Source: Patescibacteria group bacterium (GTDB lineage Bacteria > Patescibacteriota > Gracilibacteria > UBA1369 > GCA-2718715). From it: a stretch of DNA of 64,000 bases. Both the position numbers and the translations under genes were made by a program. Positions 25,885-64,000 of this stretch are shown here, piece after piece. A model generated the notes under the pieces. The model did no database searches and was not told the origin of the DNA. It worked only from the letters and a program-made list of their open reading frames with translations. The stretch lies in the NCBI GenBank assembly GCA_965660075.1, contig CBFHYO010000065.1, positions 538 through 64,537 on the forward strand. The letters are read 5' to 3'. Positions within the stretch are counted from its first letter, which is position 1; each line of letters begins with the position of its first letter.

Positions 25885-27084
25885 ATGGATTTTGAATCAA
25901 AATTTAAATCGTACGACAAAAGAAAACTTGTAAAACAACTAGAACGACATGGGATTTCTGCGAATGTTACTCAATCTAAGACTGAGCTTGTTCGCATGCT
26001 AATTCTTGCTAAAAAGGCAAACCAACCTACTAAAAAGCATTTTTCTAACGCCAGCAAAGATAAGTTTTATAAGATCCTGGCCAACTTTCTAGGTTTTTGT
26101 TTACTTATATTCACAATTAATTTTGTATACCAACAATATCTAGAGAGGTTAGAATCGGAAATGCAAATAGATGTTACAAGTAAAGAACCTCAAATTTTTG
26201 AAAAAGGTAATCAAACTTTTGTAGTTTACAATCACCCGCTTGTTCGAGTTCAGGCAATTTATGATGAAAATTGCAAGAGGCCTGAATGTGATATAAATCA
26301 AAATCTTGATCAAATTAAATCGTCGATCACTCCCCTGTTTGAACCAGAATTGATTCATTTTGATTCTCGAAAAGGCAAACATCTTGCCGAAGAATACGAC
26401 TTGAATTTACTACCGGTTTTCTTGTTTGATCAAACGGTACGTGAATTATATGACTTTGAGAAAAAAGTAGATTTTTTTACACAAAATAAAGATGTGTTTC
26501 AGTTGCAAACCACTCCAAATCGAGTTCTAGAAGGTCCGGAGTTAGTTGACTCTAAAATAATTACTGAAAACTCTAGTATAGATAGTTCAATAAAAATTAT
26601 AGTGTATATGAGTCCTAGTTCTGTACAATCAAGCGAAGCGTTGCCTATACTCGAGGATTTAGCTGCGAAATTTGGTGACAAAATGCTCATTGCAATTAAA
26701 TATTACAACACTGGTGGTAACGACTTTCTAGCCGCTACAGCTTTAGAATGCTTCTATCAACAAGATGCATTCTTACCTGGTTTAAGAACCACGTTTAACG
26801 ATCAAAACAACTGGACTGGATCTTCTGAGGCGCAGGTTAGAAGCAGATTCAAAACTTATGCTCGTAAACTTGTAAATTATAATGAATTTGTAGACTGTTT
26901 TGAGAATCCTCAGACTGAACAGATTGTTCGAAACCATTTTCAGGAATCTGGTGAACTAGGTGTTATTGGTGCACCAACTTTCTTTATTAACAATCAAATT
27001 TTGGTTGGTAACTACGAATTGGATGACTTTGCTGAACTTGTTGACCAAATTTTGAGATCTGAAAAGGTTGACTTGAGCGAATAA
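25885..27084 (+). CDS. Membrane-anchored DsbA/thioredoxin-fold protein lacking the CxxC active site
   Basis: The N-terminal part KLVKQLERHGIS...SKTELVRML is HeH/SAP-like, followed by one TM helix. The C-terminal DsbA-like fold (GAPTFFINNQILVGN) has SPSS where CPxC is expected (IIVYMSPSSVQS). Confidence 0.6.
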   Translation: MDFESKFKSYDKRKLVKQLERHGISANVTQSKTELVRMLILAKKANQPTKKHFSNASKDKFYKILANFLGFCLLIFTINFVYQQYLERLESEMQIDVTSKEPQIFEKGNQTFVVYNHPLVRVQAIYDENCKRPECDINQNLDQIKSSITPLFEPELIHFDSRKGKHLAEEYDLNLLPVFLFDQTVRELYDFEKKVDFFTQNKDVFQLQTTPNRVLEGPELVDSKIITENSSIDSSIKIIVYMSPSSVQSSEALPILEDLAAKFGDKMLIAIKYYNTGGNDFLAATALECFYQQDAFLPGLRTTFNDQNNWTGSSEAQVRSRFKTYARKLVNYNEFVDCFENPQTEQIVRNHFQESGELGVIGAPTFFINNQILVGNYELDDFAELVDQILRSEKVDLSE

Positions 27085-28921: not shown

Positions 28922-29821
28922 ATGAAACTTAATACATGCATTCATAAATTTCTAATTTATTTAGAAGTTGAAAAAAACAAATCGGCTAAAACTATAGAAA
29001 ACTACCAACACTATTTAAAAAGATTTGTAGGATTTTTTGGTGATGTGGATATTACCTCTATTGATTATGATAAAATGCAAAGTTATAGATTATATTTAAA
29101 CAGAACTAAATTTGAGCCATTAATGCAAATGCTTTCGAAAAAAACTCAGAATTATCACATGATTGCTGTTCGAGCATTGTTAAAATACTTAGCAAAAGTG
29201 GATATAGAATGTATGTCAGCAGAAAAAATTGAATTAATGGCAACTCCTAAACGAGTAGTAGATTTTTTAGAACCAAAGGAAATTCAGAAACTACTCTCAA
29301 GTTTTGATGTAGACTCAGATATTGGTCTTCGAAACAAAGCAATTTGCGAAGTGCTTTTTGCAACGGGCTTGCGTGTTTCGGAGCTTCGAAGCTTGAATCG
29401 AAAACAATTTGATAACGACATGGAAAGTGTAACAATTACTGGTAAAGGTCGTAAGTCTCGGATTGTGTTTTTTTCTCCACGTGCACTTGAGGCAATTCAT
29501 AAATATTTAAATTTACGAACTGACAATGATCCTGCTTTGTTTATAAGCCATAGAGCAGCTGAGAACAAGGATATGAGACTATCGGCTTATTCAATTCAAG
29601 AAATGATAAGAAAACAATCTTTAAAAGCTGGAATTAGTAAAAAGGTTACACCGCATACTTTGCGGCATAGTTTTGCTACCTACTTGCTTGATAACGGAGC
29701 TGATTTGCGAGGAGTTCAAGAATTACTGGGTCATAGCTCGATTACAACAACTCAAATTTATACTCACTTGACCAACAGAAAATTGCAGCAGGTGCACGCA
29801 AAAATCAACAACTTTGGTTGA
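28922..29821 (+). CDS. xerC: Tyrosine recombinase, XerC/XerD family
   Basis: It has an N-terminal SAM-like domain. The catalytic residues appear in ATGLRVSEL (R), HTLRHSFAT (HxxR) and LGHSSITTTQIYTH (H, Y). It ends with a TGA stop. Confidence 0.85.
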   Translation: MKLNTCIHKFLIYLEVEKNKSAKTIENYQHYLKRFVGFFGDVDITSIDYDKMQSYRLYLNRTKFEPLMQMLSKKTQNYHMIAVRALLKYLAKVDIECMSAEKIELMATPKRVVDFLEPKEIQKLLSSFDVDSDIGLRNKAICEVLFATGLRVSELRSLNRKQFDNDMESVTITGKGRKSRIVFFSPRALEAIHKYLNLRTDNDPALFISHRAAENKDMRLSAYSIQEMIRKQSLKAGISKKVTPHTLRHSFATYLLDNGADLRGVQELLGHSSITTTQIYTHLTNRKLQQVHAKINNFG

Positions 29822-29865
29822 CACAACAGCATGGTTTGAGTATGGTAATCTCCATAAATATATTT

Positions 29866-30867
29866 ATGCGTAAATCTTTTCTGCTTATTGTTATAACAAT
29901 TGTAAATCTGATTATTTCAGGTTTTGGCAGTTATGTTTTTGATACTACTATTCAACAGCCATTTTTTTATAGTGATGATCAGATTAAGTTTGCTTTGAAA
30001 TACACAAACAGATCTTTGGAGACTCGTTTGTTGAAACTTAACGATCGTTGCCACTCTAGTTTTAGAATGTTTGATAATAACTTTAACCAAGTATACCCAC
30101 TTAATAGATCCGAAGTTTTATGCAACAACTACTACGAAAATTTTGTTTATTTAGCACCAAAACAAAGTGTTATTTTTAGGTTTACTTTAGATGCTAAAAT
30201 ATTTAAACCTGGAAAATATTACGTGCAAGGTTTATTGAGCAACTTTGCCCCTGGACAACAAATTCCATTTGAAATTATAGAAAAACCCACTTTATACGCT
30301 GGTTTAAACCAAGCTTGTGGAAGTGCGATAAACAAAACATGTGACATTGGTTTGGAGTGCAACTTGAAAGTTTCTCACGTTAAAAACATGGGGGTGTGTG
30401 TGAATGCAGGATCAAACCCTATTTTGAACCCTAAAAAACAATTTTTTGGAGACCCGGTCTTATCTACCACACTTCCATCTGCTGGAATAGATTCTAATTC
30501 TGGTAAAATTTTGAATGTTAGCGACCTGGATTTTTACTCAAATGACTTAGTTACTGCATCTGATTTTAAGCAATTGGTTTTTAATAAAGCATTGGTTCAA
30601 ATAGACTTAGCTGATTCGAATAAAAATCTTACTAAACAGCAGGCTGTATTTTTGCTTTACTATTATTTATATTCAAAACAACAACCGATGAGTTTAACCG
30701 GTTTATTTTTCCTAGATACAATTGGCTCAAATTATAGCAAATATATAGACGCAGCCTACTCGCTTGGGGTTCTAGATTCTAAAGAAAAATATTTTTATCC
30801 AAATAGGCTTGTTACACGTTCAGAAGTTATGATTTGGATAAATAAGTTTTTAAAAATTAAACAATAA
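29866..30867 (+). CDS. Secreted Cys-containing protein with a C-terminal SLH domain
   Basis: The signal-like N-terminus is MRKSFLLIVITIVNLIISGFG. The C-terminus FLDTIGSNYSKYIDAAYSLGVLDSKEKYFYPNRLVTRSEVMIWINKFL fits the S-layer-homology pattern. The track start at 29818 is TTG, and the ATG at 29866 is preferred. Confidence 0.6.
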   Translation: MRKSFLLIVITIVNLIISGFGSYVFDTTIQQPFFYSDDQIKFALKYTNRSLETRLLKLNDRCHSSFRMFDNNFNQVYPLNRSEVLCNNYYENFVYLAPKQSVIFRFTLDAKIFKPGKYYVQGLLSNFAPGQQIPFEIIEKPTLYAGLNQACGSAINKTCDIGLECNLKVSHVKNMGVCVNAGSNPILNPKKQFFGDPVLSTTLPSAGIDSNSGKILNVSDLDFYSNDLVTASDFKQLVFNKALVQIDLADSNKNLTKQQAVFLLYYYLYSKQQPMSLTGLFFLDTIGSNYSKYIDAAYSLGVLDSKEKYFYPNRLVTRSEVMIWINKFLKIKQ

Positions 30868-34759: not shown

Positions 34760-35524
34760 GTGGCAACAAAAGATTCTAAAGACAAAAAAACAACTACAAA
34801 AAAAGTGGTAAAAAAATCATCTGAGGCAAAAGCTCCTCTAAAAAAGTCTCCAACTAAAACAAAAACTACTGCTAAAAAGCCAGATGGTGTGTTGGTTGCT
34901 ATTGGTGCATTTGTTGCATTGACATTGTTGGCGATTGCTCTTTCTGTGAGCATGGTACTTCAGAACTCAAATCAAGATGACTCTGTAGCTGCTGTTGTAT
35001 CTGAGGTTTCAGTAGAAAATGACTCTGTGCTTGGAGATCCTAATGCTCCAATTACTATTGTAGAATTTTCTGATTATAGTTGCCCGTTTTGTGCTAGACA
35101 CTTTACTGAGACTCTTCCACAAATTAAATCTGAATACATTGATTCGGGAATGGTAAAGTTAGTTTATCGTGATTTTGCTTTTAAAGGAGAAAAAAGTCAG
35201 AATTTAGCAGCAAGTGCTGAGTGTGCTGGAGAAAAAAGTGATGCAGACTTTTATAAGGTGCATGACTATATTTTTAGCAACCCTGGCGCTGATACAGAGG
35301 GTGTAATTGCATTTGGTGCAGAAAATGGACTAGGAGCTGACTTTGCAGAATGTGTTCGTAATGGTGACATGCTGAGTGAAGTACAGGCAGACATGGCAGA
35401 TGCTCAAAGTTATGGCGTTAATTCTACTCCAACATTCTTTATTAATGGAGAAAAAATTGTTGGCGCACAAGCTTTTGAGGCATTTAAGCAAGTGATTGAT
35501 AAAAAATTAGCAGAAATGGAATAA
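34760..35524 (+). CDS. Membrane-anchored DsbA-like thiol:disulfide oxidoreductase (CPFC active site)
   Basis: It uses a GTG start. The layout is a Lys-rich N-terminus, one TM helix, then a thioredoxin fold with FSDYSCPFCARHF and STPTFFINGEKIVG. Confidence 0.8.
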   Translation: MATKDSKDKKTTTKKVVKKSSEAKAPLKKSPTKTKTTAKKPDGVLVAIGAFVALTLLAIALSVSMVLQNSNQDDSVAAVVSEVSVENDSVLGDPNAPITIVEFSDYSCPFCARHFTETLPQIKSEYIDSGMVKLVYRDFAFKGEKSQNLAASAECAGEKSDADFYKVHDYIFSNPGADTEGVIAFGAENGLGADFAECVRNGDMLSEVQADMADAQSYGVNSTPTFFINGEKIVGAQAFEAFKQVIDKKLAEME

Positions 35525-38476: not shown

Positions 38477-39748
38477 ATGAATCTCATCCAACCAAGACTA
38501 CTCAAAGGCTTTCGAGACTTTGGTCCCAAAGAATCTATGCGTAGAACCCAAATAATTGAAACTATTAGATCTGTATATGAAAAATATGGCTTTGATGAAA
38601 TCGAAACTCCTATTCTTGAATATTCCGAGATATTGTTTGGAAAAATGGGTGGAGAGGCAGAAAAACTAACTTATAACTTTGAGGACCATGGTGGTCGTGG
38701 GGTTTGTATGAAATATGACCATACTGTGAGTTTTACAAGATACTATGCTCAAAATTTTAGTAAACTTGCTTCACCGTTTAAGAGATATCAGTTTGGACCT
38801 GTTTTTCGTGCAGATAAAAATCAGAAAAATCGATATAGACAATTATATCAATTCGATGCAGATGTGATTGGAGCAAACACCTTGCACTCAGAAATTGAAT
38901 TAATTGCGATGATGATAAATGCCTACAAAGCTTGCGGACTTAAAGATTTTAAGGTGAGACTTAATGATCGTGTGCTTGTGGATGGATTACTAGAAGCCAT
39001 TGGAATTGACCATGGGCATAAATATCAAGTAATTGGTGTTATAGATAGAGTGCATAAAATAGGGCTGGAAAATACTTTCGAGGAGTTTAAGAAAATTGGT
39101 GTTTCTAAGGACAAAGCTTTGAAACTTATCGATGCTATTGATGTTCATGGTAATCAATTATCACAATTGCAAAAAATTCATGGTGTTAACACTCTAAGAC
39201 TAGAAAAAATAATAGAAACATTGGACAACCTAGGATTGTCAGAGTTTATAGAATTCGATTTTAGTATCGTGCGCGGATTAGATTATTATACTGGTGTTGT
39301 TTTAGAAGTAACTGTTGATGAAGTTGCGGGTTCGATTGGGGCTGGTGGCAGATACGATGATCTATGCTCTTTATTTACCAGACAGCAATTTAGTGGATTT
39401 GGCTTGTCTATTGGAATAGATAGACTTTATGATGGACTAGAGGCTCAAGGATACTTTGATGAGTCTTCAACCAAAACTAAAGTATTAATTTCTGTTTATG
39501 GTGAAGGAACTTATTTAAAGAGCTTGCAATTGCAAAAAACTTTACATGAAAATGGTATTGCAGCAGAGGTGTATCCTGATGAAGATAAACTAAAGAAACA
39601 ATTAAAATATGCTGATCGAAAAGGTATTGGTTTTGTTTTGCTTGCTGGTCCACAAGAAATTGCAAATGGAGAATATGTTTTAAAAGATATGTTCTCGGGT
39701 GAGCAAGAACATGTGAATGAAAAAAAGCTAATCGAAAGATTAGCTTAG
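38477..39748 (+). CDS. hisS: Histidine--tRNA ligase, archaeal/eukaryal-like type
   Basis: MKYDHTVSFTRYYA resembles LRYDLTVPFARY. FRADKNQKNRYRQLYQFDADVIG resembles the eukaryal RGRYREFYQCDFDIAG. The motifs RGLDYYTGVV and GAGGRYDDL are canonical, and an anticodon-binding domain is present. Confidence 0.85.
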   Translation: MNLIQPRLLKGFRDFGPKESMRRTQIIETIRSVYEKYGFDEIETPILEYSEILFGKMGGEAEKLTYNFEDHGGRGVCMKYDHTVSFTRYYAQNFSKLASPFKRYQFGPVFRADKNQKNRYRQLYQFDADVIGANTLHSEIELIAMMINAYKACGLKDFKVRLNDRVLVDGLLEAIGIDHGHKYQVIGVIDRVHKIGLENTFEEFKKIGVSKDKALKLIDAIDVHGNQLSQLQKIHGVNTLRLEKIIETLDNLGLSEFIEFDFSIVRGLDYYTGVVLEVTVDEVAGSIGAGGRYDDLCSLFTRQQFSGFGLSIGIDRLYDGLEAQGYFDESSTKTKVLISVYGEGTYLKSLQLQKTLHENGIAAEVYPDEDKLKKQLKYADRKGIGFVLLAGPQEIANGEYVLKDMFSGEQEHVNEKKLIERLA

Positions 39749-53497: not shown

Positions 53498-53520
53498 ATA
53501 GAGTAAAAAGTAAATAAAAA

Positions 53521-53553
53521 ACCACTCTGTGTTGATAGAGTGGTTTTATTTTT
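53521..53553. terminator. Bidirectional rho-independent terminator
   Basis: The hairpin ACCACTCT-GTGTTGAT-AGAGTGGT is flanked by an A-run (53512-53520) and TTTATTTTT. It lies between convergent genes. Confidence 0.8.
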
Positions 53554-53580: not shown

Positions 53581-54330
53581 TTATTTTTTGAATGAATCAG
53601 CTATTTTCTCCATACCCCTTAGGATTTCAACTGGAACCATCCAGATTGTCGTATTAGACTGATCTGATGAAAGATCGTTAATAGACTGAAGAGTTCGAAG
53701 ATGCAAAGCACCAGGACTTTCTGCAAGCATGGCTGCTGCTTCTTTTAGGTTTTGGGCTGATTCTTTTTCTGCTGTAGCTTTAATCAAAACTGCACGTTTT
53801 TCACGTTCTGCTTCTGCTTCTTTGGCCATTGTTCTTTTTAGATCATCTGGCAGACGAATATCTTTTAATTCTACACTTTCAACCGAAATACCCCACTCAT
53901 CTGAAGCTTTTTCGACAATATTTCTAATATTTGTGGCAATATCATCACGAGATTTAAGTAGAGTGTCTAAATCGACAGTACCAACGATATTTCGCATCGT
54001 AGTTTGGGCTAGCTGGCTGATTGCATAATAGTAATTTTCTACTTCGATAATAGCTCGAGCTGCATCTTTTACTTTGTAATAAATAACAGCATTAATTCTG
54101 ATTGAAATATTATCTAAGGTGATTGCTTCTTGATCTGGAACATCTACAGCTTTGGTTCGAATATCTACCTTTTGCATTCCTTGGAAAACTGGTAGAACTA
54201 ATCGCCAGCCTGGATTTACAGTTTCGGAATATTTACCGATTGTAAACTTCACTCCTCTTTCGTATTCTTGAACTTGTCTTATTGAAGAAAGAAGAATGAC
54301 TCCAATAATTACTACTAATGACATTGGCAT
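53581..54330 (-). CDS. SPFH/Band 7 (stomatin/slipin-like) membrane scaffold protein
   Basis: It has an N-terminal TM helix followed by VQEYERGVKFTIGKY...DVRTKAVDVPDQEAITLDNISIRINAVIYYKV...AEAEREKRA. Confidence 0.88.
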   Translation of the reverse strand: MPMSLVVIIGVILLSSIRQVQEYERGVKFTIGKYSETVNPGWRLVLPVFQGMQKVDIRTKAVDVPDQEAITLDNISIRINAVIYYKVKDAARAIIEVENYYYAISQLAQTTMRNIVGTVDLDTLLKSRDDIATNIRNIVEKASDEWGISVESVELKDIRLPDDLKRTMAKEAEAEREKRAVLIKATAEKESAQNLKEAAAMLAESPGALHLRTLQSINDLSSDQSNTTIWMVPVEILRGMEKIADSFKK

Positions 54331-54341
54331 GGAAAAAATGG

Positions 54342-55616
54342 TTACTTACATTGGTTAGTATATACATGCTCGAAAATTTTGTCGAGACTGCGCTGCTGGC
54401 TAGTACCCTTAACAGCTTGTATACAATCTTGTATATAGTTTGAGGAAATAGAAGATGTAGCTTGAATCTGCAAAGCATATGCAGAGTGAATATCTGTGAG
54501 AATTTGCAATTTTTTGAATTCGATTTCTAGATTTGCTACAGTTTCAGCTTGTTGCTTTAGAGATTCAACAGATTGTGCGATTTGATTTAGGTTTAAACCA
54601 GATTGCAAGGCGTCTCTGAATGCATTTTGGTCGGATGTGAGTGATCTTTTAGAAAGAATATATTTCTTTAGGTTTTCATCAGATCCTGCGGTTAGGTTTG
54701 TTTTTAAGCGGTTATACTCTTTCGAAAAAGCTTGACCTACTTTCACAAAATCGCCGCCAACTGCTGCTGCTGAACCTTTTGTGACATTCCATAAATTCTT
54801 AAAGAAGCCATCTTCTTTGTTTGAGTTTTTCTCTAAGAATGCTAGTTCTTCTTTGAAAACTTTTTTTAGGTTTTTTTGAAAATTTTCGCTAAAACTGGTA
54901 ATGGATTTTATAAATTCTTTTAAGGCTTTGTTTAGAGCTACGATTTGCTGAGAATTGCCTTTTCCGAATTTATCAAGGGTTTCGCTCCAAGCTTGATAAG
55001 TTCTATTAAACCTATTGGAACACTCAGAATAAACACCAGTGGTTGTTACATTACCTTGTGGATCTATAATTTTTTGATTGAAGTTTTCTTCGTATTTATC
55101 CAAAATTAGATCTACCTCTGCTTTGATTTCTGTATAATTTCCATTAAAATCCTGTCTGTGAATATCAAATGCGGCAAGGTACATGGGTTCACGAGAATAA
55201 TTTGGATCGTTGAGTGGCACCAGCTCAAGCAAATCTAAGTTTCGAAGAACTGTTAGTTCTAAATCGAGATTTTTAAAGACACTTAATCTGGTTTTGGCAT
55301 CGTCTACAGAATAGGAGTTAATATTGTCTATAAGATCATCTAAAATGGCATCTTTTTTCTTTAAAATCTCCATTCTTTGTGCGTAATTACAATTGTTGGC
55401 TGAGTAGTTAGTTTGGAAATTAAAAAAACTCTGCCGAAATGTTTCGGAGTAATCAGAGCCATCGAAAGTTTCTTCGAGTACAGTAAAAAAAGTATCATAC
55501 CTTTGTTCAAAGCTATCTTGCCTTACGACAGGTGAAGTTTGTGCATATGCAAACGGACTACTTAATAAGTTAGTAATCATTATTACCAATAAAATTTTTG
55601 ATACTCTTATTCGCAT
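54342..55616 (-). CDS. Secreted helical protein, unknown family (ends ...YTNQCK)
   Basis: The signal peptide is MRIRVSKILLVIMITNLLSSPFAYA|Q. The 424-aa protein is rich in helix-forming residues. It overlaps the upstream gene by 10 nt and lies 11 nt from the SPFH gene. Confidence 0.6.
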   Translation of the reverse strand: MRIRVSKILLVIMITNLLSSPFAYAQTSPVVRQDSFEQRYDTFFTVLEETFDGSDYSETFRQSFFNFQTNYSANNCNYAQRMEILKKKDAILDDLIDNINSYSVDDAKTRLSVFKNLDLELTVLRNLDLLELVPLNDPNYSREPMYLAAFDIHRQDFNGNYTEIKAEVDLILDKYEENFNQKIIDPQGNVTTTGVYSECSNRFNRTYQAWSETLDKFGKGNSQQIVALNKALKEFIKSITSFSENFQKNLKKVFKEELAFLEKNSNKEDGFFKNLWNVTKGSAAAVGGDFVKVGQAFSKEYNRLKTNLTAGSDENLKKYILSKRSLTSDQNAFRDALQSGLNLNQIAQSVESLKQQAETVANLEIEFKKLQILTDIHSAYALQIQATSSISSNYIQDCIQAVKGTSQQRSLDKIFEHVYTNQCK

Positions 55617-57142
55617 TTACTTTTGTTTAATAATGGAGTTGCCGCTTCTCTTAAAGAAGCAATTGCTGTATGTAGGTTTTGCATGTGTCTGTTGAAAGTA
55701 TCCATTCTGCCTATTATATCATTGTAACCAAACTTTAAATCACTAATTTGATCTGATAACTCAGCTGATTGTTGATTTGCTTCTTGTAGTGCTTCTTGAA
55801 CTTGTTCTATTGCGATATCTCTTTCTAGAATATTTTGGGTAGATGAACTGATAATATCTTGCCTTGGAGGTGTTGGAAGAGACTGTGTTATTTGGGCTTC
55901 TCTAACTTCTCTGGTTGGGTCTGTAGGACGCAGGGGTTTGGAGAGAACTTTGAAATTAAACACAATTAAACTTTTCTTAAGTTCTTCTTTACAAAATGGA
56001 AACTCACCAATATTTCCAGTAACTTTTTGAGGAAGTAAGTTTACTGCTAAAATTTGATTCATGGCAGCTTTTATTTGTGAAACCTTGCAAGCTAAACAAT
56101 TTTGATCTGCGGGGATTACCAATCCAAAGCGCCCCATTACTTCTTCTACGCTTAGGCAGAACATTTGATCTTCTTCGCACTCAAATTCCATGGTTGGGTA
56201 GTCGGAAAATCCAAGAGGTGTGGTGGTGTTATTTTGACTACTCACAGGCTCATTTGTGGCTTGTGGATCGGGTTCTGGGCTTGGTTGTTGATTGGATTGT
56301 TGGTTGTCTTGTGGGTTTGTATTTTGGGACCCGGTTGGATTTGAATCGGAGGAACTATCGGTTTGAGGTGGTTGAATATTTTCGAGCTGCTGGGTGAGTT
56401 CCGGATCTGCATCGCAGCTGCTAGTTTCTGATTGTGAAATTACACTTGGAGTGGTTGGCTGAGTTCGATCTTGACTGTCTTGTTCTGTTTCGGCTTGATC
56501 ATCTGGCGGGGTTGTTTGACCAGGGTTTGGATTGGCTTGTTCTTGGGATTGAGGGGTTGGGTTAGTTGGGGTTGGGACATTCGAGAAGCCTGCAGGTAGA
56601 CCAGTTAAACTCTGTGTGTTAGACATTCCATCTAACAATATTTCTGATTGAGAATTGAATAAAACTTGTTCCAGAACGTTCAAGTCAACAATCAGGTCGA
56701 AAAATGAATCTTCGGTTGAATTATTCATAAATGCTTCTTTGGCAAATGTGTCTATTTTATTTTTTTGAACAGTCTTTAAATCCTTTGATGCTTGCTCGTA
56801 TCTGGCTCGAACATTGTCGTTGTTTAAATTTGGAATTTGCCTATTACTTTTAACAACTGCTACTACATCTGATTCAGAAATTGTAAATTCATCCGAAAGC
56901 ATTTGATAGACCAGTCTTTCTGCGTCACTCATAAAAAATTTACTGATTGAAAGGTATACATTTGGGTTTTGACTTGCCAAATTTACCTGGGTAACATCTT
57001 TAATTCTAGATTCTTGTGCTTTGTTTATGTAGTCAAAGATCAGCTGATCTGTGATTTGATTGTTAGCATTGGCTATTTGGTTTGTAAAAAATATAATCAA
57101 CAAACCAAAAAGTATGCTAGGTACACTCTGTAGTAGACGCAT
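55607..57142 (-). CDS. Secreted protein with a central P/Q/T/S/N-rich low-complexity region, unknown family (ends ...NKSKCE)
   Basis: The signal peptide ends ANA|N. The low-complexity tract lies at about 56230-56620. A Cys cluster follows (FECEEDQMFC...NCLAC...FPFC). It overlaps the upstream gene by 26 nt. Confidence 0.6.
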   Translation of the reverse strand: MRLLQSVPSILFGLLIIFFTNQIANANNQITDQLIFDYINKAQESRIKDVTQVNLASQNPNVYLSISKFFMSDAERLVYQMLSDEFTISESDVVAVVKSNRQIPNLNNDNVRARYEQASKDLKTVQKNKIDTFAKEAFMNNSTEDSFFDLIVDLNVLEQVLFNSQSEILLDGMSNTQSLTGLPAGFSNVPTPTNPTPQSQEQANPNPGQTTPPDDQAETEQDSQDRTQPTTPSVISQSETSSCDADPELTQQLENIQPPQTDSSSDSNPTGSQNTNPQDNQQSNQQPSPEPDPQATNEPVSSQNNTTTPLGFSDYPTMEFECEEDQMFCLSVEEVMGRFGLVIPADQNCLACKVSQIKAAMNQILAVNLLPQKVTGNIGEFPFCKEELKKSLIVFNFKVLSKPLRPTDPTREVREAQITQSLPTPPRQDIISSSTQNILERDIAIEQVQEALQEANQQSAELSDQISDLKFGYNDIIGRMDTFNRHMQNLHTAIASLREAATPLLNKSKCE

Positions 57143-57818
57143 TTTCGAATTTGTTAGGAATATTTTTTAGAATTTCTATAGATTTTGAAAGCTCAACATT
57201 TAATAAAGCTGCCTGAGACTGCATTTTAATTATGTTTTCGTGGATTGGGTAGCTCATAAAAACTTGATTGTAGAGAGTTACATTGGACTCAAGCATGTCT
57301 AAAATATCACTCCGGTGCTTGTTCCAATAAGTCTGAAAAGCAAGTGATTGAGATTGATTTGCAGGTGTTTGAATAAATGTTTGGATTTCTTGATCTGTCT
57401 TATAAAACTGTTCTAAACTCAGTGTTATTAAACATTGTGGGTTTATATTGGTTAATGTTTCGATTTCTAATTTACACTCACTCACAGCTTGCTCGCGAGC
57501 GGTTTGGTTTGAGTGCTCATAATGCTGTGTTGGTGCCATCAACACTTTTTGATTTTGGGATGAAATGTTTGGCAAGTTTGCATCACTAGGAGTTCTATTT
57601 GGACTAATAGACTGGTTGAATTTTTTGAGATTTGCGTACTGCTTGTTTGTAATATCGTTAACTTTGAGATGATAACAAGCGATAATGTGCTCGAAACTGC
57701 GATCTGTTGATGGATCACAATACTGTTCGGTAGTTTCTGCCTGTGCCGCAAAAAAACCTTGATGTAGAATCAAAAAAAGCGAAAGAATAGCTATCGTATA
57801 CAACTTTCTATGTAACAT
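57117..57818 (-). CDS. Secreted helical protein, unknown family (ends ...TTECT)
   Basis: The signal peptide ends AQA|E. The protein is 233 aa and overlaps the upstream gene by 28 nt. Confidence 0.6.
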   Translation of the reverse strand: MLHRKLYTIAILSLFLILHQGFFAAQAETTEQYCDPSTDRSFEHIIACYHLKVNDITNKQYANLKKFNQSISPNRTPSDANLPNISSQNQKVLMAPTQHYEHSNQTAREQAVSECKLEIETLTNINPQCLITLSLEQFYKTDQEIQTFIQTPANQSQSLAFQTYWNKHRSDILDMLESNVTLYNQVFMSYPIHENIIKMQSQAALLNVELSKSIEILKNIPNKFENASTTECT

Positions 57819-58384
57819 GGCACACGCGAGTTAAACGCAGATATTTGGTCTGCTATATAATTTACATCATTTACTAGTTGTTCTAGTTTGATATTAATTT
57901 GGTCAAATTTACTAACTAATGGCAAAGCACTTTTTTTAGATGTCGATTTGGCGACTGCCCGTGCTAGTACCAATTCCATTTCTGTGACTACGTCTGTTAT
58001 AAGTTGATCACAGGTGTTTAGGGTTCCTAAGTCGTATAAGCTTTGAACTTCTTCTCTGTAGGTGGCTATTTTGGTAGATCTGAGGGCTTCTGTTTTGGAT
58101 CGGTAGTTTAGATAATGATATTGTAAATCAACCAAATTTGTTGATACTGGTTGTTCTGCAGTTAAAAACTCTTGTACTTTTTCATAAAACCCATCTAGAT
58201 TTGCTTGCAACTGGGTGCTAATTAATTGATCACACTTAATTTGATCTGCAACTTGTTGTTGTGTTTGTGTTTGTGGAGATTGGCTTGTAGCAACTTCTGA
58301 GTTTGCTTGGGGGTTTGCAAAAAATGTAATCAGGCATGTAAAAACCAGCAAAAATGAAACAATATGGAGGGAGTTTTTATTCAT
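57791..58384 (-). CDS. Secreted helical protein, unknown family (ends ...PCYIESCIR)
   Basis: The signal peptide ends PQA|N. The protein is 197 aa and overlaps the giant gene by 8 nt (ATGAATAA). Confidence 0.6.
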   Translation of the reverse strand: MNKNSLHIVSFLLVFTCLITFFANPQANSEVATSQSPQTQTQQQVADQIKCDQLISTQLQANLDGFYEKVQEFLTAEQPVSTNLVDLQYHYLNYRSKTEALRSTKIATYREEVQSLYDLGTLNTCDQLITDVVTEMELVLARAVAKSTSKKSALPLVSKFDQINIKLEQLVNDVNYIADQISAFNSRVPCYIESCIR

Positions 58385-61300
58385 TTGTGATTGTTAGCGC
58401 ATTAGATTTATCGAGAACTAGTGTTTTATCTGGGTTTCTGAGAATTGCAAAGAAAACATCTGATTCTGATAAAAATTCTTCACTTTCAATTGTATACTGA
58501 CACGGGCACTGGTCACAAGCAATATCCTCTAAAATATTAGATTCTGGATTGATAGAAACTACAGATTGAGTATTATCTTGATCTGTTATTTCGATTTTTA
58601 CAGATGCAGAAATTTGCTCTAATTGCGACTGGATTGATTCTGCTTGTGCCTCTAACTGTTCGGCTTGAGATTGTTGTTTGAGTTGTGTTGAATCTAGAGC
58701 TTCTGAGTCTTGAGTGGTAGATGTAGGAGTTTGGGCTTGTTTGATAAGATCTGCTAATTGATTAGCAAGGGATTCTAACAGTGCCACTCTGTTTGGATCT
58801 TGTAGTAGTTTTTGTGCTTGTAAATCTTGAGTTGCTTGTATTTGATCTGCTGCAGATTGTTCGAAAATATCTTCTGTTGGAAGGTTTAACGCTTCCCTGT
58901 CGGCAATACAATTTCTGATATCTAGAGTTCTTTTGGCAATTTCTGCAAATTCGATACGAGTTAATTTTTTATCAGGATTTTTAGATTCAGTTTCGGTTAG
59001 CAAGAATGTTTGTTTTAAGTCACCTACTTGAATTGGCGTAAGATTTAATGAGTAATCAAGGTAGTTTTGGTACCAAGGTTCGACCTCTTTGAAATCTGAA
59101 GTGTCTATTACGTTCAATAAATCTAGGGCCTGCATAATAACTTTGACCGCCTCGATTTGGCTGATTGGATTAAGAGGCTTGAATGGAGTTAATAAAGAGC
59201 TTGTGTTTCTTTCGCCTTTGTAACCTTCGAAGAGACCTAGCAAGAATGTTTCTTTGGTTTCATCGTAGAACCATGGAATTAGTTCTCCAAAAGCAATGTC
59301 GTCGAATACAGAAGGCTGAAGATAACTCTCTGGTCTTGGCGAAATACAAAGTACCTTAAGAATGATTTTTGCATACTCCGCACGTGTAATTAATTTATTT
59401 GGGAAGAAATATCTTAAACCACCAACTTTTGAACCTTCTATAATACCTTTCTCTTGAAGATACCTAAGCGTTTGAGCTTCTTTTGAATTAGGATCAATAT
59501 CTGCAAAAGTCGGAGTTTTGTTTGCCAACTCATCTTTTGATTGGTCTGACAACATGGCTAAAATTTCAGCCATTTGGGCATCTGTTAAATTATGCTTGTT
59601 TTTAAACTGATTCAGAATGTCACTAATATCTTGCGTAAATACTTCTTGTTCTGTGGTGTTTGTGTCTGGATTTGACTGGGTTTGAACCACTGGTGCTTGG
59701 GTGTTTGAGCTTGAGAAAGGTTTCACAAGACTAGTTGGACTACTACTTTTAACTAGATAAGCTGCTACTATTTTGTTTTTATAACTTATAAATACTTTTT
59801 GATCTTGGTTAAGATCTGTAATTTTTTCCAATTCTAGTTTTATCTGAGGGTGACTTACAATATTGGAACCATTTGGTTTTAGAATAAATACAACTGTATT
59901 ATTACTGTCGTCTTTTATAAATACAGATCCTCTGAGTGCTGGATTTTCAAAACCGATTGATTCTAAATTGATTTGGTCATTGTTGTCCATATCGACAATG
60001 CTGACAGGATTTGTAGCAGATACAAGTTGCTCTAGAACTTCTAATTGATTTACAGAGAGATTATTATCCCCTGTTTTATGTATAGAAGTTAGATAATCAT
60101 CTTCGAAAAACAACTGATAGTTACTTGAATTTGTATCTGTAGAGTTGGATCGAACTTTGATACTTGCTTTTGGATGTTTACTAATTACATTCCCATTTGC
60201 CCGAGAAATATCGAATAGCTCCCCTACCTCTGGATTACTTATAATAATTGGAGTTTCTAATGGATTATTAATTAGTTGGTCGATTTGTTCTGGATTTAAA
60301 TCTGGATTTTGGTCACTTGCCACTTCGGACATGAGAATGGTAAATTCACCAGCAGAATTGGTTGATGTTTCGGCAAATATTTCTGATGAACCAGATTTCT
60401 TTTGAACAATCTCAAGAGGCATGTTTGCTGCAACTGGAGAAATTACACCTTTAATATGTGTTTTGTTTACTTCTGTAATATTTATCTTAGGTGTTTGGAT
60501 TGGGTAGTTGAATAAAGATTCTGATTTGTTATTAGCAAAATCACTGGCGTAAACCTTGAATGACTTATTGTTAAACTCTGTAAATGGTCCAAAGGTAAAT
60601 TCTTTTATTGGTGAATTTATATTAAAATTAATATTTTTATCGTTATCACGAATGCCATCATTATCGGAATCAACATCTAAATTAGTATCTACAAATAAAT
60701 CTTTGAGACCACTTTCTGAATCGAAAGATTCTGAGAGATCGAAATTATGAGTTGCTCTATAAACTAACTTTTGAACTTGTGGAGTGAGTGTTATGGTTGG
60801 AGGTGTTCTGTCTGCACAAATATCTACTGTAAAGTTGATGTTTCGTTGAAAGGCTTTGGTAGTTAGTTGATCTACAATAAACACATCATAAGAGTAAATA
60901 CCAAGGTCTAATGGAATATTGATACTACTTGGTGTTGATTGAATTGTTTGCATTTGAGCAAAATCATCACGGAGAATCTGAACTTGATTAATTCGTGCAG
61001 AAGACACGTTTTGATTGGATTCGACTTGATTTGAAACTACAATTTTCTTGTATGGGTTTCTGGCTTGCAATGAATTTTTATAAATTTCTACAACTACCGA
61101 ACTAGAACCCAATTCTGCTGGCAATTGAATTTGGACTGAATTGTGATTGGATGTAAAGGAAGTCTCGTTTGATTGCATATCTAACTTGCTGTTTTCTTGG
61201 AAAACATTTTCAAATTGGAAAACACTAGGTCTTTTTGCTCTTGAAATTCGCGAGGTTAGTTCTGAGTAATTTTCTTTTATATAGAACTCATTACCTGCTG

Positions 61301-64000
61301 AATATAATACATCGATATCTGTGTCTAAATCTAAATCGGCCATTGTAACTCTGATTTTTTCTTGTGTATGTGTTGAGTTTTTAATAATGTTTGTGACTTG
61401 GTTTTGATTGTCAGTAACGTATACACCAGTTTGCTGATCTTGGATTGGTTGAATCTCATCTACTCTATCTATATCAATATATTCAGTGAAAGCAATTGGC
61501 ATGGATGTGACAACGTTTTTAGAAATTACTTTGTTTGATACTTGAGGAGTTTGACTTGCAATTAATTTTGGTGCTACTTGTGTGTAATCGCCATGAATCT
61601 TATTGTTTTGTAAATAGTCTTGTAATTGAGCAAGGGTTTGTTTGGATTTAGGATCTAAATATTTATAGTTAGCAATTTTTTGAGAACTTGGAATTTCTGC
61701 TGCAAGTTTGTTAAGTGTCTCAAAATCAATAGGCTCTATTTGTGCTTTTAGATGAGTGTTAACTTTTTTATATTCGGCTATTTTATCAAGTGACTGATTG
61801 ATAGTTTCAATTTCTTGTGGCAACTCTGCTATTACATCTACTAAAGATTTATCTTGTGGCAATTTAGCCCCCAGGTCTTCTAACCCCGAAAGTACTTGAA
61901 TTTCTTGTGAGAGATCTTCTTCTACTTGGTCTACTAAGTTTTGATAAAACAGAAGTACGTTTTGCAAATTCTGATTCCAGCTACTTGCTGGTTGTTGCAC
62001 AAGATCGACAAGCTTATCGAAACCAAAATTAAGTTTGGATTGTAATGTTACTTTGTATTTTTCGACATACTCTCCAGAATACCCAGGATATGTGATCTTG
62101 AATGCTTTATCTATTGGTAAGACTGGTGTAAGAGGTCGATTTGTAATTGACTCGATAGATGCTCCCAATTTGTTTTCTGGAATAGGTGTGAGACCTTTTC
62201 TAATAATACACATTAGATCGAATACATTTTGGACAAACTCCATTGGTGCTTCGAGTCTACCAGCAAGATCTAAATCTAGCTGACTAATATCTGGTGGATT
62301 TGGTAACACAGGTAAAGAGAATGTGTTTAGGGGTGGGAATGGAGGCAACTCGATTTCTAGTTTTGGTGGCTCTGGAATTAGTGGAACTTCGATCCCCTCT
62401 ACAAAAGCAATAAAATCTAATCTTGGTGCATCTGGCCAGATAATAACTGGTTTAAATTCTGGCAACTCTACAATTTGTCTGGTGATTTTTGGTACAGGTA
62501 TGTCTATTTCTAACCCTCCTTGGATGTCTGTTAAATCTAGAACAAAATCCGGGAATACATCAAATCGTAGGACTGGAAGTTCTGGAGCTCCTAAAAGTAG
62601 ATTGAAAATAAGTTGTAATTCGGCATTACTTCTATCTGTTCGACAATCATCACATTGGCTAATAAAGTTAGCAGAAATATCTAATAATAAATTAAAATCT
62701 CTGATTAAATTTTGGACAGTTTGGATAGCACTTGTCCATGATTGAATTTGAGCTGTGTTTTTATCTATAAAAGATAACCACTCGCCTAGAACTACATCGA
62801 GATATTTTGCAGCTTGATCTGAATAAAAATATAGAATGTTTTCGATTTCGAAGATTTGTTTTGGAACATCTCTGTAGGCTCTTAGGATTTCGAGGTTTTC
62901 AGAAAGATTGCCAACAAACCCCTCAAATGCAAGACTCAGCTGAATACATGACTGGGCATTTGGATCTGGTGGAGTTTGTCTGAGTTTTCTTTCATTGGCA
63001 ATTTTTAGGAAATTGGTTAGTTCTTTGTTTTTTACCATGTCTTCGATCAGCTTTGTTGTACCTCCAGCAAATGAATAACCTTTGTAGGCTTGTTCTATGG
63101 CCCCTACATAATCTCTGAAGGTTGAGTAATCTCGTTTGTTGTATCTGAATACAACTCCTAAGTCAGTAAGATCACCTGGAATGTCTGTCTGATCCCAAGT
63201 TGTAAACAGTGAGCCAAATATTTTACCAAATTCAACTGTTTGTTGCTGCTCTTGAGTTAAACCACTAACAGGTATGTCTCTTAGAGACTCTGCTTCTTGG
63301 ACTTTTTCTGCAAACTGGTTGAATTTTTCTATATCTGCTTCTGGCAAACAACCCCACCGTGATAAAGCATTCAGAAAAGAAATCATATTAGCCTGCAAGG
63401 TAAGTAAAATATCTTTTTGATATTTTAATAAAATTTTTGGAGGCAACTCTGGAATATTAAAATTAACTGGAACTGTATTTAGGTTGATAGCTGGCATTTT
63501 AGAAAGCTCTGCGAGTAGATCTTCTGGTCTTTTGCTTAATTTGGTCCAGAAAGATTTTTTGGCTTGATTAAATTCTTGCTCTGTTTCGTAGCCACCACAT
63601 TCTTGTTTTTTAGCTTGAAAAACTGGACAGTTTGGAAATGGGTTGAATTTATCTACTTCGGGACCAGAAATCAGGTAACCAAATTCTTCTTTGGCTCCTT
63701 TGATAGGATCTGAAATACTAAAATCAGAATTAGGAGAAAAGTCTGGAATGATAATTGTTATATCTGGTACATCGAATGCTTTTACAATTTCTGAAACTTG
63801 ATTTACAAACCAATTAGAAACAAATCCTGGGAAACCAGGCAGGGTTATGTTTTTGTCTGCAGTACTCTCAAGTCCAATCCCTGTAGCTGACTCGATTCCA
63901 TTTGCAACAATATCTTGAGCACGATTGAGTATGCCAATTACAACTTGATTAATAGCGTCACAGGCTGGACCTAAATCAAATAAAGATGCAAACCAACATG
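58377..64000 (-). CDS. Giant cell-surface protein with three C-proximal SLH repeats (5' end outside the window)
   Basis: The track ORF 58377-63497 is 1706 aa. My hand translation of the same frame stays open with no stop and no Met from 63498 to the window edge, adding 167 codons. It contains three SLH-like repeats (about 58900-59530, e.g. FFPNKLITRAEYAKIILKVL and KKLTRIEFAEIAKRTL). A DxDxDGxxDxD calcium-type motif (VDSDNDGIRDNDKN) lies at about 60634-60690. Proline-rich and Q-rich coiled segments are also present. Confidence 0.75.
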   Translation of the reverse strand, partial: CWFASLFDLGPACDAINQVVIGILNRAQDIVANGIESATGIGLESTADKNITLPGFPGFVSNWFVNQVSEIVKAFDVPDITIIIPDFSPNSDFSISDPIKGAKEEFGYLISGPEVDKFNPFPNCPVFQAKKQECGGYETEQEFNQAKKSFWTKLSKRPEDLLAELSKMPAINLNTVPVNFNIPELPPKILLKYQKDILLTLQANMISFLNALSRWGCLPEADIEKFNQFAEKVQEAESLRDIPVSGLTQEQQQTVEFGKIFGSLFTTWDQTDIPGDLTDLGVVFRYNKRDYSTFRDYVGAIEQAYKGYSFAGGTTKLIEDMVKNKELTNFLKIANERKLRQTPPDPNAQSCIQLSLAFEGFVGNLSENLEILRAYRDVPKQIFEIENILYFYSDQAAKYLDVVLGEWLSFIDKNTAQIQSWTSAIQTVQNLIRDFNLLLDISANFISQCDDCRTDRSNAELQLIFNLLLGAPELPVLRFDVFPDFVLDLTDIQGGLEIDIPVPKITRQIVELPEFKPVIIWPDAPRLDFIAFVEGIEVPLIPEPPKLEIELPPFPPLNTFSLPVLPNPPDISQLDLDLAGRLEAPMEFVQNVFDLMCIIRKGLTPIPENKLGASIESITNRPLTPVLPIDKAFKITYPGYSGEYVEKYKVTLQSKLNFGFDKLVDLVQQPASSWNQNLQNVLLFYQNLVDQVEEDLSQEIQVLSGLEDLGAKLPQDKSLVDVIAELPQEIETINQSLDKIAEYKKVNTHLKAQIEPIDFETLNKLAAEIPSSQKIANYKYLDPKSKQTLAQLQDYLQNNKIHGDYTQVAPKLIASQTPQVSNKVISKNVVTSMPIAFTEYIDIDRVDEIQPIQDQQTGVYVTDNQNQVTNIIKNSTHTQEKIRVTMADLDLDTDIDVLYSAGNEFYIKENYSELTSRISRAKRPSVFQFENVFQENSKLDMQSNETSFTSNHNSVQIQLPAELGSSSVVVEIYKNSLQARNPYKKIVVSNQVESNQNVSSARINQVQILRDDFAQMQTIQSTPSSINIPLDLGIYSYDVFIVDQLTTKAFQRNINFTVDICADRTPPTITLTPQVQKLVYRATHNFDLSESFDSESGLKDLFVDTNLDVDSDNDGIRDNDKNINFNINSPIKEFTFGPFTEFNNKSFKVYASDFANNKSESLFNYPIQTPKINITEVNKTHIKGVISPVAANMPLEIVQKKSGSSEIFAETSTNSAGEFTILMSEVASDQNPDLNPEQIDQLINNPLETPIIISNPEVGELFDISRANGNVISKHPKASIKVRSNSTDTNSSNYQLFFEDDYLTSIHKTGDNNLSVNQLEVLEQLVSATNPVSIVDMDNNDQINLESIGFENPALRGSVFIKDDSNNTVVFILKPNGSNIVSHPQIKLELEKITDLNQDQKVFISYKNKIVAAYLVKSSSPTSLVKPFSSSNTQAPVVQTQSNPDTNTTEQEVFTQDISDILNQFKNKHNLTDAQMAEILAMLSDQSKDELANKTPTFADIDPNSKEAQTLRYLQEKGIIEGSKVGGLRYFFPNKLITRAEYAKIILKVLCISPRPESYLQPSVFDDIAFGELIPWFYDETKETFLLGLFEGYKGERNTSSLLTPFKPLNPISQIEAVKVIMQALDLLNVIDTSDFKEVEPWYQNYLDYSLNLTPIQVGDLKQTFLLTETESKNPDKKLTRIEFAEIAKRTLDIRNCIADREALNLPTEDIFEQSAADQIQATQDLQAQKLLQDPNRVALLESLANQLADLIKQAQTPTSTTQDSEALDSTQLKQQSQAEQLEAQAESIQSQLEQISASVKIEITDQDNTQSVVSINPESNILEDIACDQCPCQYTIESEEFLSESDVFFAILRNPDKTLVLDKSNALTITNE

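Follow-up and report, generated by a model that had tools for sequence, protein, structure and literature searches.

A candidate attachment locus in Patescibacteria: type IV filament genes, a giant SLH-domain protein and four predicted secreted proteins

The minus strand at one end of a 64,000-nucleotide stretch of DNA from a Patescibacteria group bacterium (assembly GCA_965660075.1, contig CBFHYO010000065.1, positions 538 to 64,537; hereafter the window) carries the distal part of a gene for a giant protein with S-layer homology (SLH) repeats, four genes for small secreted proteins that we call s1 to s4, and a gene for a membrane protein of the SPFH/Band-7 type. Are these six genes a self-contained surface apparatus, as a sequence-only reading of the window had proposed, or the visible end of something larger, and what might their products do for the cell? 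Our results argue for the larger unit. The window holds the distal half of a conserved ~22-kb cluster of Peregrinibacteria/Gracilibacteria-type bacteria in the candidate phyla radiation (CPR), in which a PilN-like and a PilO-like gene, PilB, PilC, one or two pilins, the giant and s1 to s4 follow one another in that order, with the SPFH gene appended in the lineage studied here. It is a variant type IV filament locus, highly conserved and to all appearance undescribed, that includes four new protein families, and we consider it reasonably probable that it specifies a pilus-coupled, wall-anchored adhesin complex for attachment to a host or a surface. The undescribed surface or attachment apparatus of the earlier proposal survives in part: the genes are conserved and apparently undescribed, but they belong to a larger type IV filament cluster.

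Gene order and the extent of the locus

The six minus-strand open reading frames (ORFs) at the end of the window (Table 1) are packed as had been described from the letters alone: the giant overlaps s1 by 8 nt, s1 overlaps s2 by 28 nt, s2 overlaps s3 by 26 nt, s3 overlaps s4 by 10 nt, and an 11-nt gap separates s4 from the SPFH gene. This geometry suggests translational coupling of the overlapping genes; no Shine-Dalgarno-like motif was found before the overlapping starts. The absence of a terminator within the operon before about 53521-53553 was likewise borne out. We found one strong terminator-like site only, a hairpin that separates the SPFH gene from a convergent gene of 261 aa and would close both. 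On the minus strand within the operon there are just two 5-bp stems, both in coding sequence and not above what shuffled sequences give, and the region as a whole holds 10 terminator-like sites, compared with 6.5 +/- 2.7 expected from shuffles. The proposal of a six-gene unit did not stand. No stop codon of the giant lies in 63498-64000 and its frame is open to base 64000; the window therefore contains only part of the gene.

The missing part could be read from a near-identical strain. An exact-match look-up located the identical s1 protein on a 64,957-bp contig (L004), which shares 99.39% identity with the window across 15,625 bp. Upstream of the giant on this contig the same strand carries two pilin genes, PilC, PilB and genes for bitopic proteins of 195 and 446 aa, and no gap between them is longer than 118 nt. 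The last pilin gene is 33 nt from the giant, and the cluster is preceded by a 261-nt gap and a divergent rplJ-rplL pair. From these same-strand genes, and from the start of the cluster after the gap beside rplJ-rplL, a transcription unit of ~12 genes and 22.4 kb is likely, and the genes in the window would be its 3' half.

Several of the upstream genes can be assigned from their domains. Orthologues of PilB (53-72% identity) occur in 15 genome loci, and PilC adjoins PilB across the genome loci. The two genes directly before the giant match the Pfam model N_methyl (23.7 and 31.3 bits; cut-off 21.2), and their products begin with the pilin-type N-termini ...AFTMIELLIV and ...GFTLIEILIV. For the 195-aa gene, the orthologue in locus L028 matches Pfam PilO at 24.4 bits (cut-off 22), and orthologues of the 446-aa gene match PilN weakly, with E values of 0.003-0.04 that are below the cut-off; the studied genome's own copies of both genes gave no match at all. 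A gene for the prepilin peptidase PilD is absent from the gene tables of the homologous contigs inspected, the rest of the genome not having been searched. With a predicted extension ATPase, a platform protein and pilins, the cluster has the hallmarks of a type IV filament system.

To what extent is this arrangement shared? A scan seeded with the giant, in which one genome per GTDB species was considered and the small proteins were found by iterated local hidden Markov models over the loci, returned 19 loci with 21-64% identity from Peribacteria, Peregrinibacteria, Gracilibacteria and Patescibacteria metagenome-assembled genomes (MAGs), nearly all of which fit genetic code 11. In every locus that extends past the giant (18/18), s1, s2, s3 and s4 come after it with order and strand unchanged. 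PilB and PilC, followed by one or more pilin genes, are present in 15 of the giant-seeded loci. In 12 of these they immediately precede the called giant ORF; in the other three (L011, L022 and L026) the locus ends at the start of the match to the giant. In three additional loci, where the upstream flank is short, pilin genes alone were seen. Because this first scan was seeded with the giant, an independent one was seeded with s3 on metagenome contigs and gave 80 loci, ~13 of them apparently using code 25. Among the loci that are testable in each case, s2 lies upstream of s3 in 67/67, s1 upstream of s2 in 58/58 and s4 downstream of s3 in 57/59, and an ORF of at least 800 aa ends at s1 on the same strand in 40/42, with a CxxCxC motif in its tail in 35 of those 40. 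Both scans thus bear out the conservation of gene order that the sequence-only reading had suggested checking. On their synteny counts, the conserved core consists of the predicted pilus genes, the giant and then s1 to s4, and the SPFH gene lies outside it.

The SPFH protein itself is a clear member of its family (Band_7, PF01145, E 1.7e-40) with an N-terminal hydrophobic anchor, so the domain had been named correctly. Its matches to HflK/HflC are partial and far below the equivalog cut-offs; one member of its cluster carries the source name 'regulator of protease activity HflC'. It had been counted as a scaffold member of the operon, a role that the synteny does not sustain. An SPFH gene directly follows s4 in 3/49 testable metagenome loci and, among the genome loci, only in L004, L007 and L010, the three closest relatives; the cluster at 26% giant identity is without it. 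By these counts the gene is an addition peculiar to this lineage and lies outside the core; in the studied genome it is probably co-transcribed. Three loci that are otherwise distant also have SPFH homologues with 60-64% identity (L042 6243-6995, L060 10751-11737 and L089 6972-7739), which lie downstream of s4 at 2-3.5 kb and form a loose association that recurs. Beyond s4 the surroundings change: among distant relatives, most (L008, L013-L018 and many of L035-L107) carry after the module a convergent ~965-aa gene, with UvrA domains in L008, and the studied lineage has lspA, ftsW and murG after the module. Since the downstream gene differs between lineages, the downstream neighborhood is not conserved, unlike the upstream pilus genes.

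The giant protein and the four secreted proteins

The full-length giant on L004 (P0001) has 3,907 aa, a Sec-type signal sequence at its N-terminus and no internal transmembrane segment. Recoding of UGA in the studied genome is ruled out, as the ORF is intact under translation table 11. A word-indexed search returned 15 homologues, all of 3,700-5,650 aa, the named ones from 'Candidatus Gracilibacteria' MAGs, and public records call relatives from Peregrinibacteria and Gracilibacteria MAGs 'S-layer homology domain-containing' or 'FG-GAP-like repeat-containing'. Several of the giants (P0010-P0013) show W at positions where their relatives show G (as in TLTWWVGTAICYGWP vs TLTGGVGTAICFGGP) and look like products of code-25 (UGA=Gly) genomes translated by code 4.

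The part of the giant outside the SLH repeats had been thought impossible to place, and that judgment does not hold in full: besides belonging to this family of SLH- and FG-GAP-annotated giants, the protein has a recognizable N-terminal domain. Residues 31-300, which are encoded outside the window (about 10091-10900 on L004), match Peptidase_C25 at 29.3 bits (cut-off 23) over model positions 10-207 of 374, and the region is kept in all 15 giants. A conserved His-Gly is present and residues 1-400 contain no Cys at all. We therefore rejected the idea of an active, gingipain-type C25 peptidase, which would need a catalytic His-Cys dyad; with no Cys in the first 400 residues, the head of the giant is apparently a non-catalytic C25-like domain. 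The middle of the protein has FG-GAP-like segments, assigned from Pfam matches in relatives, and Asp-rich segments that resemble TSP3 repeats by eye. Two blocks, a Cys-rich one at residues ~1957-2125 and a helical and Pro-rich one at 2380-2665, are conserved among the homologues. The second has the widest conservation in the giant and is the only block common to all 15 homologues; it combines a helical segment with a CDDC motif, a stretch rich in Pro ('LPxLP') and the motif 'TNRPLTPVLP'.

The SLH region had been recognized from the sequence alone and is real. Scored on the whole protein it reaches 19.8 bits, below the cut-off of 20.8, and when residues 3520-3745 are scanned alone it reaches 31.3 bits (E 2e-7), above that cut-off. 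In P0007 and P0008 the homologous regions reach 31-40 bits, the region shares 40% identity with its SLH-bearing counterpart in P0008, and the SLH domain of Sap in the PDB weakly matches the giant at the same place. By eye, the region of ~205 aa shows repeated F-x-D-I and (I/L)-[TS]-R-x-E motifs. It is followed by a coiled, Q-rich linker and by a conserved 45-residue tail, which has exactly three Cys in 18/19 genome loci. Sequence and profile searches of the PDB with the giant gave coiled-coil noise and weak SLH matches only. The beta-propeller domain of PilY1 and Neisseria PilC had no match in Pfam or NCBIfam, for which fragments of 1,706 and 3,335 aa were used, and no match to PDB sequences.

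The four proteins encoded after the giant all have the Sec signal peptides that had been attributed to them. Their N-termini are basic and then hydrophobic, heuristic prediction places cleavage after AYA in s1 (before Q), ANA in s2 (before N), AQA in s3 (before E) and PQA in s4 (before N), and beyond the N-terminal hydrophobic core none has a further segment that resembles a transmembrane helix. Among s1 orthologues the pattern of a small residue and then an acidic or polar one (A before Q, E or D) recurs after the hydrophobic region. Cysteines are a shared feature of the other end: in alignments s1, s2 and s4 each have an invariant Cys among their last few residues. In s1, Cys51, Cys125 and Cys195 are invariant and the C-terminus reads 'LPCYxxxC'; s2 has a conserved 'YPxH' motif and a C-terminal 'TTxxC' whose final Cys is invariant, and its mature form has an odd number of Cys in 19/19 orthologues; s4 ends in an invariant 'QC'. 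Over their C-terminal ~105 residues s1 and s2 are paralogous (hhalign probability 96%, E 3.8e-9). The N-termini of s1 and s4 align with an hhalign probability of 42% and may have a motif in common. We tried and rejected the idea that all four are mutual paralogues: by hhalign only s1 and s2 are related, and s3 is unrelated to the others.

The family of s3 stands by itself: 236 clusters with E<=1e-3, all of ~500-650 aa, were found among 1.84 billion representative proteins. An AlphaFold2 (AF2) model from an alignment of 98 sequences has a mean predicted local distance difference test (pLDDT) score of 66.7, rising above 90 at residues 70-120. In it residues 62-162 form a confidently modelled helical N-domain, 171-320 are a disordered linker, 350-400 make up a small domain rich in Cys with the pattern CxxxxxxC...NCxAC...CK, and 441-505 form a long C-terminal helix. 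The description of the small proteins as largely helical is borne out for s3 only, with helices in these two parts and about a third of the chain disordered. Foldseek searches with the model found nothing at E<0.1 in the PDB or BFVD.

That the four small proteins stand outside known families was confirmed. Pfam and NCBIfam hold nothing credible for any of them, sequence and profile searches of the PDB with s1, s3 and s4 gave no useful match and only coiled-coil noise, word-based searches returned 6 close relatives each for s3 and s4, and relatives of s1 to s4 in public records are 'hypothetical' or unnamed. From these searches s1 to s4 are four new protein families, with no described family or fold to which they could be assigned. 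More familiar identities were considered and rejected. With hhalign probabilities below 4%, s1 and s2 are not PilO-like and s4 is not PilN-like. None of the four is a pilin or minor pilin, as they have no N_methyl match and no class III signal; a pattern search for class III N-termini over the whole window matched at 299 and 1472 only. Nor are they lipoproteins, the s1 alignment showing by eye no conserved lipobox Cys.

One of the four also differs in its variation between strains. Compared with its counterpart on L004 (24485-25759), s4 has 41 differences over 1,275 bp, or 32 per kb, against ~2 per kb in the giant, with 28 codons changed synonymously and 10 non-synonymously. The gene is the strain-level hotspot of single-nucleotide polymorphisms, which suggests a recombined tract under purifying selection, and the excess of synonymous differences is what a real gene under such selection should show.

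Table 1. Coordinates of the features discussed, in the window unless a position is given on the near-identical strain contig L004
Feature	Position	Strand	Basis or remark
PilB/GspE (T2SSE) extension ATPase, 547 aa	L004 6001-7644	same strand as giant	PF00437
PilC/GspF (T2SSF) platform protein, 423 aa	L004 7647-8918	same strand as giant	PF00482
Giant, C-terminal 1,873 codons + stop	58377..64000	-	ORF; gene runs past window end; the ATG at 63497 lies inside the gene
Most widely conserved block of giant, residues 2380-2665	62106..62963	-	only block common to all 15 homologues
SLH region of giant, residues 3530-3735	58896..59513	-	Pfam SLH
C-terminal tail of giant, CxxCPCx[SY][TA]I...GDxIF...SNxxxI	58380..58523	-	exactly three Cys
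s1, 197 aa, secreted	57791..58384	-	ORF; first gene after giant
s2, 233 aa, secreted	57117..57818	-	ORF; second gene after giant
s3, 511 aa, secreted	55607..57142	-	ORF
s4, 424 aa, secreted	54342..55616	-	ORF
SPFH/Band-7 membrane protein, 249 aa	53581..54330	-	ORF; Band_7
Bidirectional intrinsic-terminator-like hairpin	53518..53547	both	13-bp stem, T-runs on both strands

Other genes of the window

Elsewhere in the window, all on the plus strand, several genes touch on the same themes. At 299-2521 lie three consecutive genes for proteins of 185, 207 and 349 aa, the first and third with prepilin N-termini (MRSGFTLLELV... and MKKGFTLVEILV...) and N_methyl matches; this trio is probably a minor-pilin cluster separate from the giant's operon. 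A second PilB/T2SSE ATPase of 565 aa, with an MshEN domain and 41% identity to the PilB of the cluster, is encoded at 16138-17835 between NusA/RecA and a convergent DprA gene. The genome therefore has at least two type IV filament ATPases.

Two genes at 25885-27084 and 34760-35524 encode DsbA-like proteins of the thioredoxin fold (Thioredoxin_4/DSBA), which fits extracytoplasmic disulfide formation in Cys-bearing secreted proteins. A further SLH protein of 349 aa (SLH 26 bits) is encoded at 29818-30867, directly downstream of a tyrosine recombinase gene at 28922-29821. Finally, two genes of the histidyl-tRNA-synthetase family, at 24491-25816 and 38477-39748 (441 and 423 aa), lie within 14 kb of each other, and one may be a paralogue with another role.

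Attachment, export or envelope

How could these products work? Co-oriented and tightly packed genes for exported proteins make it very likely that the products act together at the cell surface, as the sequence-only reading had held. We envision a scenario in which the Sec pathway exports the giant and s1 to s4 by way of the signal sequences that all of them carry and that would then be cleaved. The SLH region near its C-terminus, a recognizable domain, would bind the wall and hold the giant there, and the ~3,500 N-terminal residues would project outward as an adhesive fibre with a C25-like head and FG-GAP-like and TSP3-like segments. s1 to s4 may assemble at the giant's CxxCPC tail, its wall-proximal end, in a complex that is possibly stabilized by disulfides through their C-terminal cysteines. 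Given the obligate synteny of the pilus genes with the giant, the co-encoded type IV filament could bring the cell into contact with its host or substrate, or could aid deployment of the fibre. A bolder version of this scenario, possible though in our estimate rather unlikely in its full form, would make the giant and s1 to s4 a new type IV filament accessory complex. In it, a disulfide-linked, wall-anchored assembly would physically couple the fibre to the pilus machine, replace the solution based on PilY1 and minor pilins, and serve as the principal host-attachment organelle of the Peregrinibacteria-Gracilibacteria branch.

Several points weigh against a pilus-coupled adhesin complex. Its function is deduced solely from gene content and synteny, and the pilus genes lie beyond the window, known from the contig of the near-identical strain and from relatives. 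Two loci depart from the pattern: in L008 the pilin gene is 4 kb upstream of the giant, with PIN toxin/toxin-antitoxin genes between them and no PilB or PilC within 10 kb, and the code-25 giant of L009, intact only under table 25, is without pilus genes or s1 to s4 nearby. s1 to s4 have no detectable similarity to pilins, to PilN/O-like proteins or to any solved structure, and to call them partners of the giant is guesswork. For the conserved core of the giant (residues 1915-2720), an AF2 model built from 9 sequences was unusable, with a mean pLDDT of 45. Of the SLH repeats only the first scores in Pfam, and no CsaB-type gene, as associated with pyruvylated wall polymer, turned up among the scanned ORFs of the window, where no targeted search for it was made.

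The same genes could serve export instead of attachment. PilB, PilC and the pilins might form a short pseudopilus, similar to that of a type II secretion system (T2SS), that pushes the Sec-exported giant, and perhaps s1 to s4, through a thick wall or surface layer, so that the giant would be cargo. One ATPase and only one or two pilins are encoded in the cluster, and a retraction ATPase (PilT) is missing from it, a minimal set that resembles Com and T2SS pseudopili; and the second PilB-like ATPase with its MshEN domain, together with the separate three-gene pilin-like cluster, means that the 'real' pilus may be encoded elsewhere. The unrelated giants of Omnitrophota are likewise preceded by a T2SS-like locus with genes for class III signal peptides, as reported in the available part of a preprint (bioRxiv 10.1101/2023.11.21.568195). 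At the level of sequence a pseudopilus and a pilus are indistinguishable here, and the four strictly conserved secreted proteins are explained no better by export than by an adhesin complex. The SLH anchor suggests that the giant stays on the cell, and among the loci we noticed neither a secretin nor another dedicated component of a conduit. We regard export of a cargo as unlikely.

Less likely still is that the giant and s1 to s4 build a constitutive coat or wall-spanning structure of the S-layer type and that their adjacency to pilus genes reflects no more than co-regulation of the envelope. SLH domains are typical of S-layer proteins, relatives of the giant are named 'S-layer homology domain-containing protein', the window encodes the other SLH protein described above, and the neighborhood of the module is rich in wall-synthesis genes, with ftsW, murG, lspA, a gene for a LysM-M23 peptidase and one that is Wzy-like. 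Yet a single-copy protein of 3,907 aa with FG-GAP-like, TSP3-like and C25-like modules has the build of a fibrillar adhesin and not of a lattice-forming S-layer protein, and the wall-synthesis neighbors vary between loci, most of which have the convergent ~965-aa gene in their place, whereas the pilus genes are kept. The original picture of a self-contained six-gene apparatus, with SPFH as the membrane scaffold of an extracellular assembly, can appeal to the short, terminator-free interval between s4 and the SPFH gene and to the looser SPFH neighbors in three further metagenome loci. It is largely refuted by the synteny counts, which leave SPFH adjacent to s4 only in a few metagenome loci and the closest genome loci and show the unit extending upstream into pilus genes, and we hold it to be highly improbable. 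Altogether we favor a pilus-coupled, wall-anchored adhesin complex.

Type IV pili may carry a large non-pilin tip adhesin together with four minor pilins, of the PilY1/PilC plus FimU-PilVWX type. The locus described here is alike in pairing a large adhesin-like protein and four small accessory proteins with genes for a pilin, PilB and PilC, and attachment is the role that we infer for it. The two differ in their parts. Unlike minor pilins, s1 to s4 have Sec-type and not class III signal peptides, no N_methyl match and no similarity to pilins, and separate pilin-like genes are present elsewhere in the window. The giant has no PilY1/PilC domain match, is three times larger than PilY1 and has an SLH wall anchor. 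A second comparison is with the SLH-anchored fibrillar adhesins and S-layer proteins of monoderms, which share a Sec signal peptide, SLH domains for non-covalent attachment to the wall and a long multidomain stalk. In contrast to these, the giant has its SLH region near the C-terminus, ahead of the coiled Q-rich linker and the Cys tail, and its gene stands after pilus genes and before an obligate set of four partner genes.

The closest published analogue in the literature available to us comes from another phylum. In Omnitrophota, giants are encoded directly after GspE/GspF-type genes and genes for small class III signal peptide proteins and have been proposed to act in adhesion to prey or host (West-Roberts et al., bioRxiv 10.1101/2023.11.21.568195). 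In the available part of that preprint, the likeness lies in a giant ORF directly 3' of GspE/GspF-type genes in ultra-small, probably host-dependent bacteria. As described there, the Omnitrophota giants are unrelated to ours, with numerous transmembrane regions and SecA-DEAD-like domains, whereas the giant studied here has only its N-terminal hydrophobic segment and no such Pfam match; pilZ genes and carbohydrate transport systems lie downstream of them, and the part available mentions no quartet like s1 to s4.

Within the same broad clade as the studied giant (Absconditabacteria, Gracilibacteria, Peregrinibacteria), the available parts of reports on Vampirococcus lugosii (PMC8080830) and 'Ca. 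Peribacter riflensis' (PMC4736985) describe giant exported proteins with integrin/FG-GAP-type domains, proposed to act in host recognition, and type IV pili in the same genomes. Giant surface proteins and type IV pili are there each proposed as attachment factors of the clade (PMC8080830, PMC4736985). In the parts available, the two papers treat giants and pili separately, with no module of pilus genes, giant and four further genes and no s1 to s4 families. The available portions of studies of huge proteins (PMC11573180) and of groundwater Gracilibacteria (PMC11452946) similarly mention giants or pili and do not describe the module, and a full-text search of the literature, as far as its texts were available, found no description of it. 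Type IV pili are essential for host adhesion of a Saccharibacterium, according to work cited in the accessible part of PMC11452946.

How ultra-small, host-dependent CPR bacteria recognize and hold their hosts is largely unknown outside the Saccharibacteria, for which type IV pili have been cited as essential. The locus described here offers a testable attachment candidate for a whole class of CPR bacteria, one in which a strictly conserved five-gene module and dedicated pilus genes take up ~22 kb of a presumably small genome. The s1 to s4 families can be used as markers, and the interactions of the giant's tail with s1 to s4 and with the pilins are the ones to probe. The parallel with the independent pairing of giants and T2SS-like genes in Omnitrophota hints at a general design that predatory or episymbiotic nanobacteria may share.

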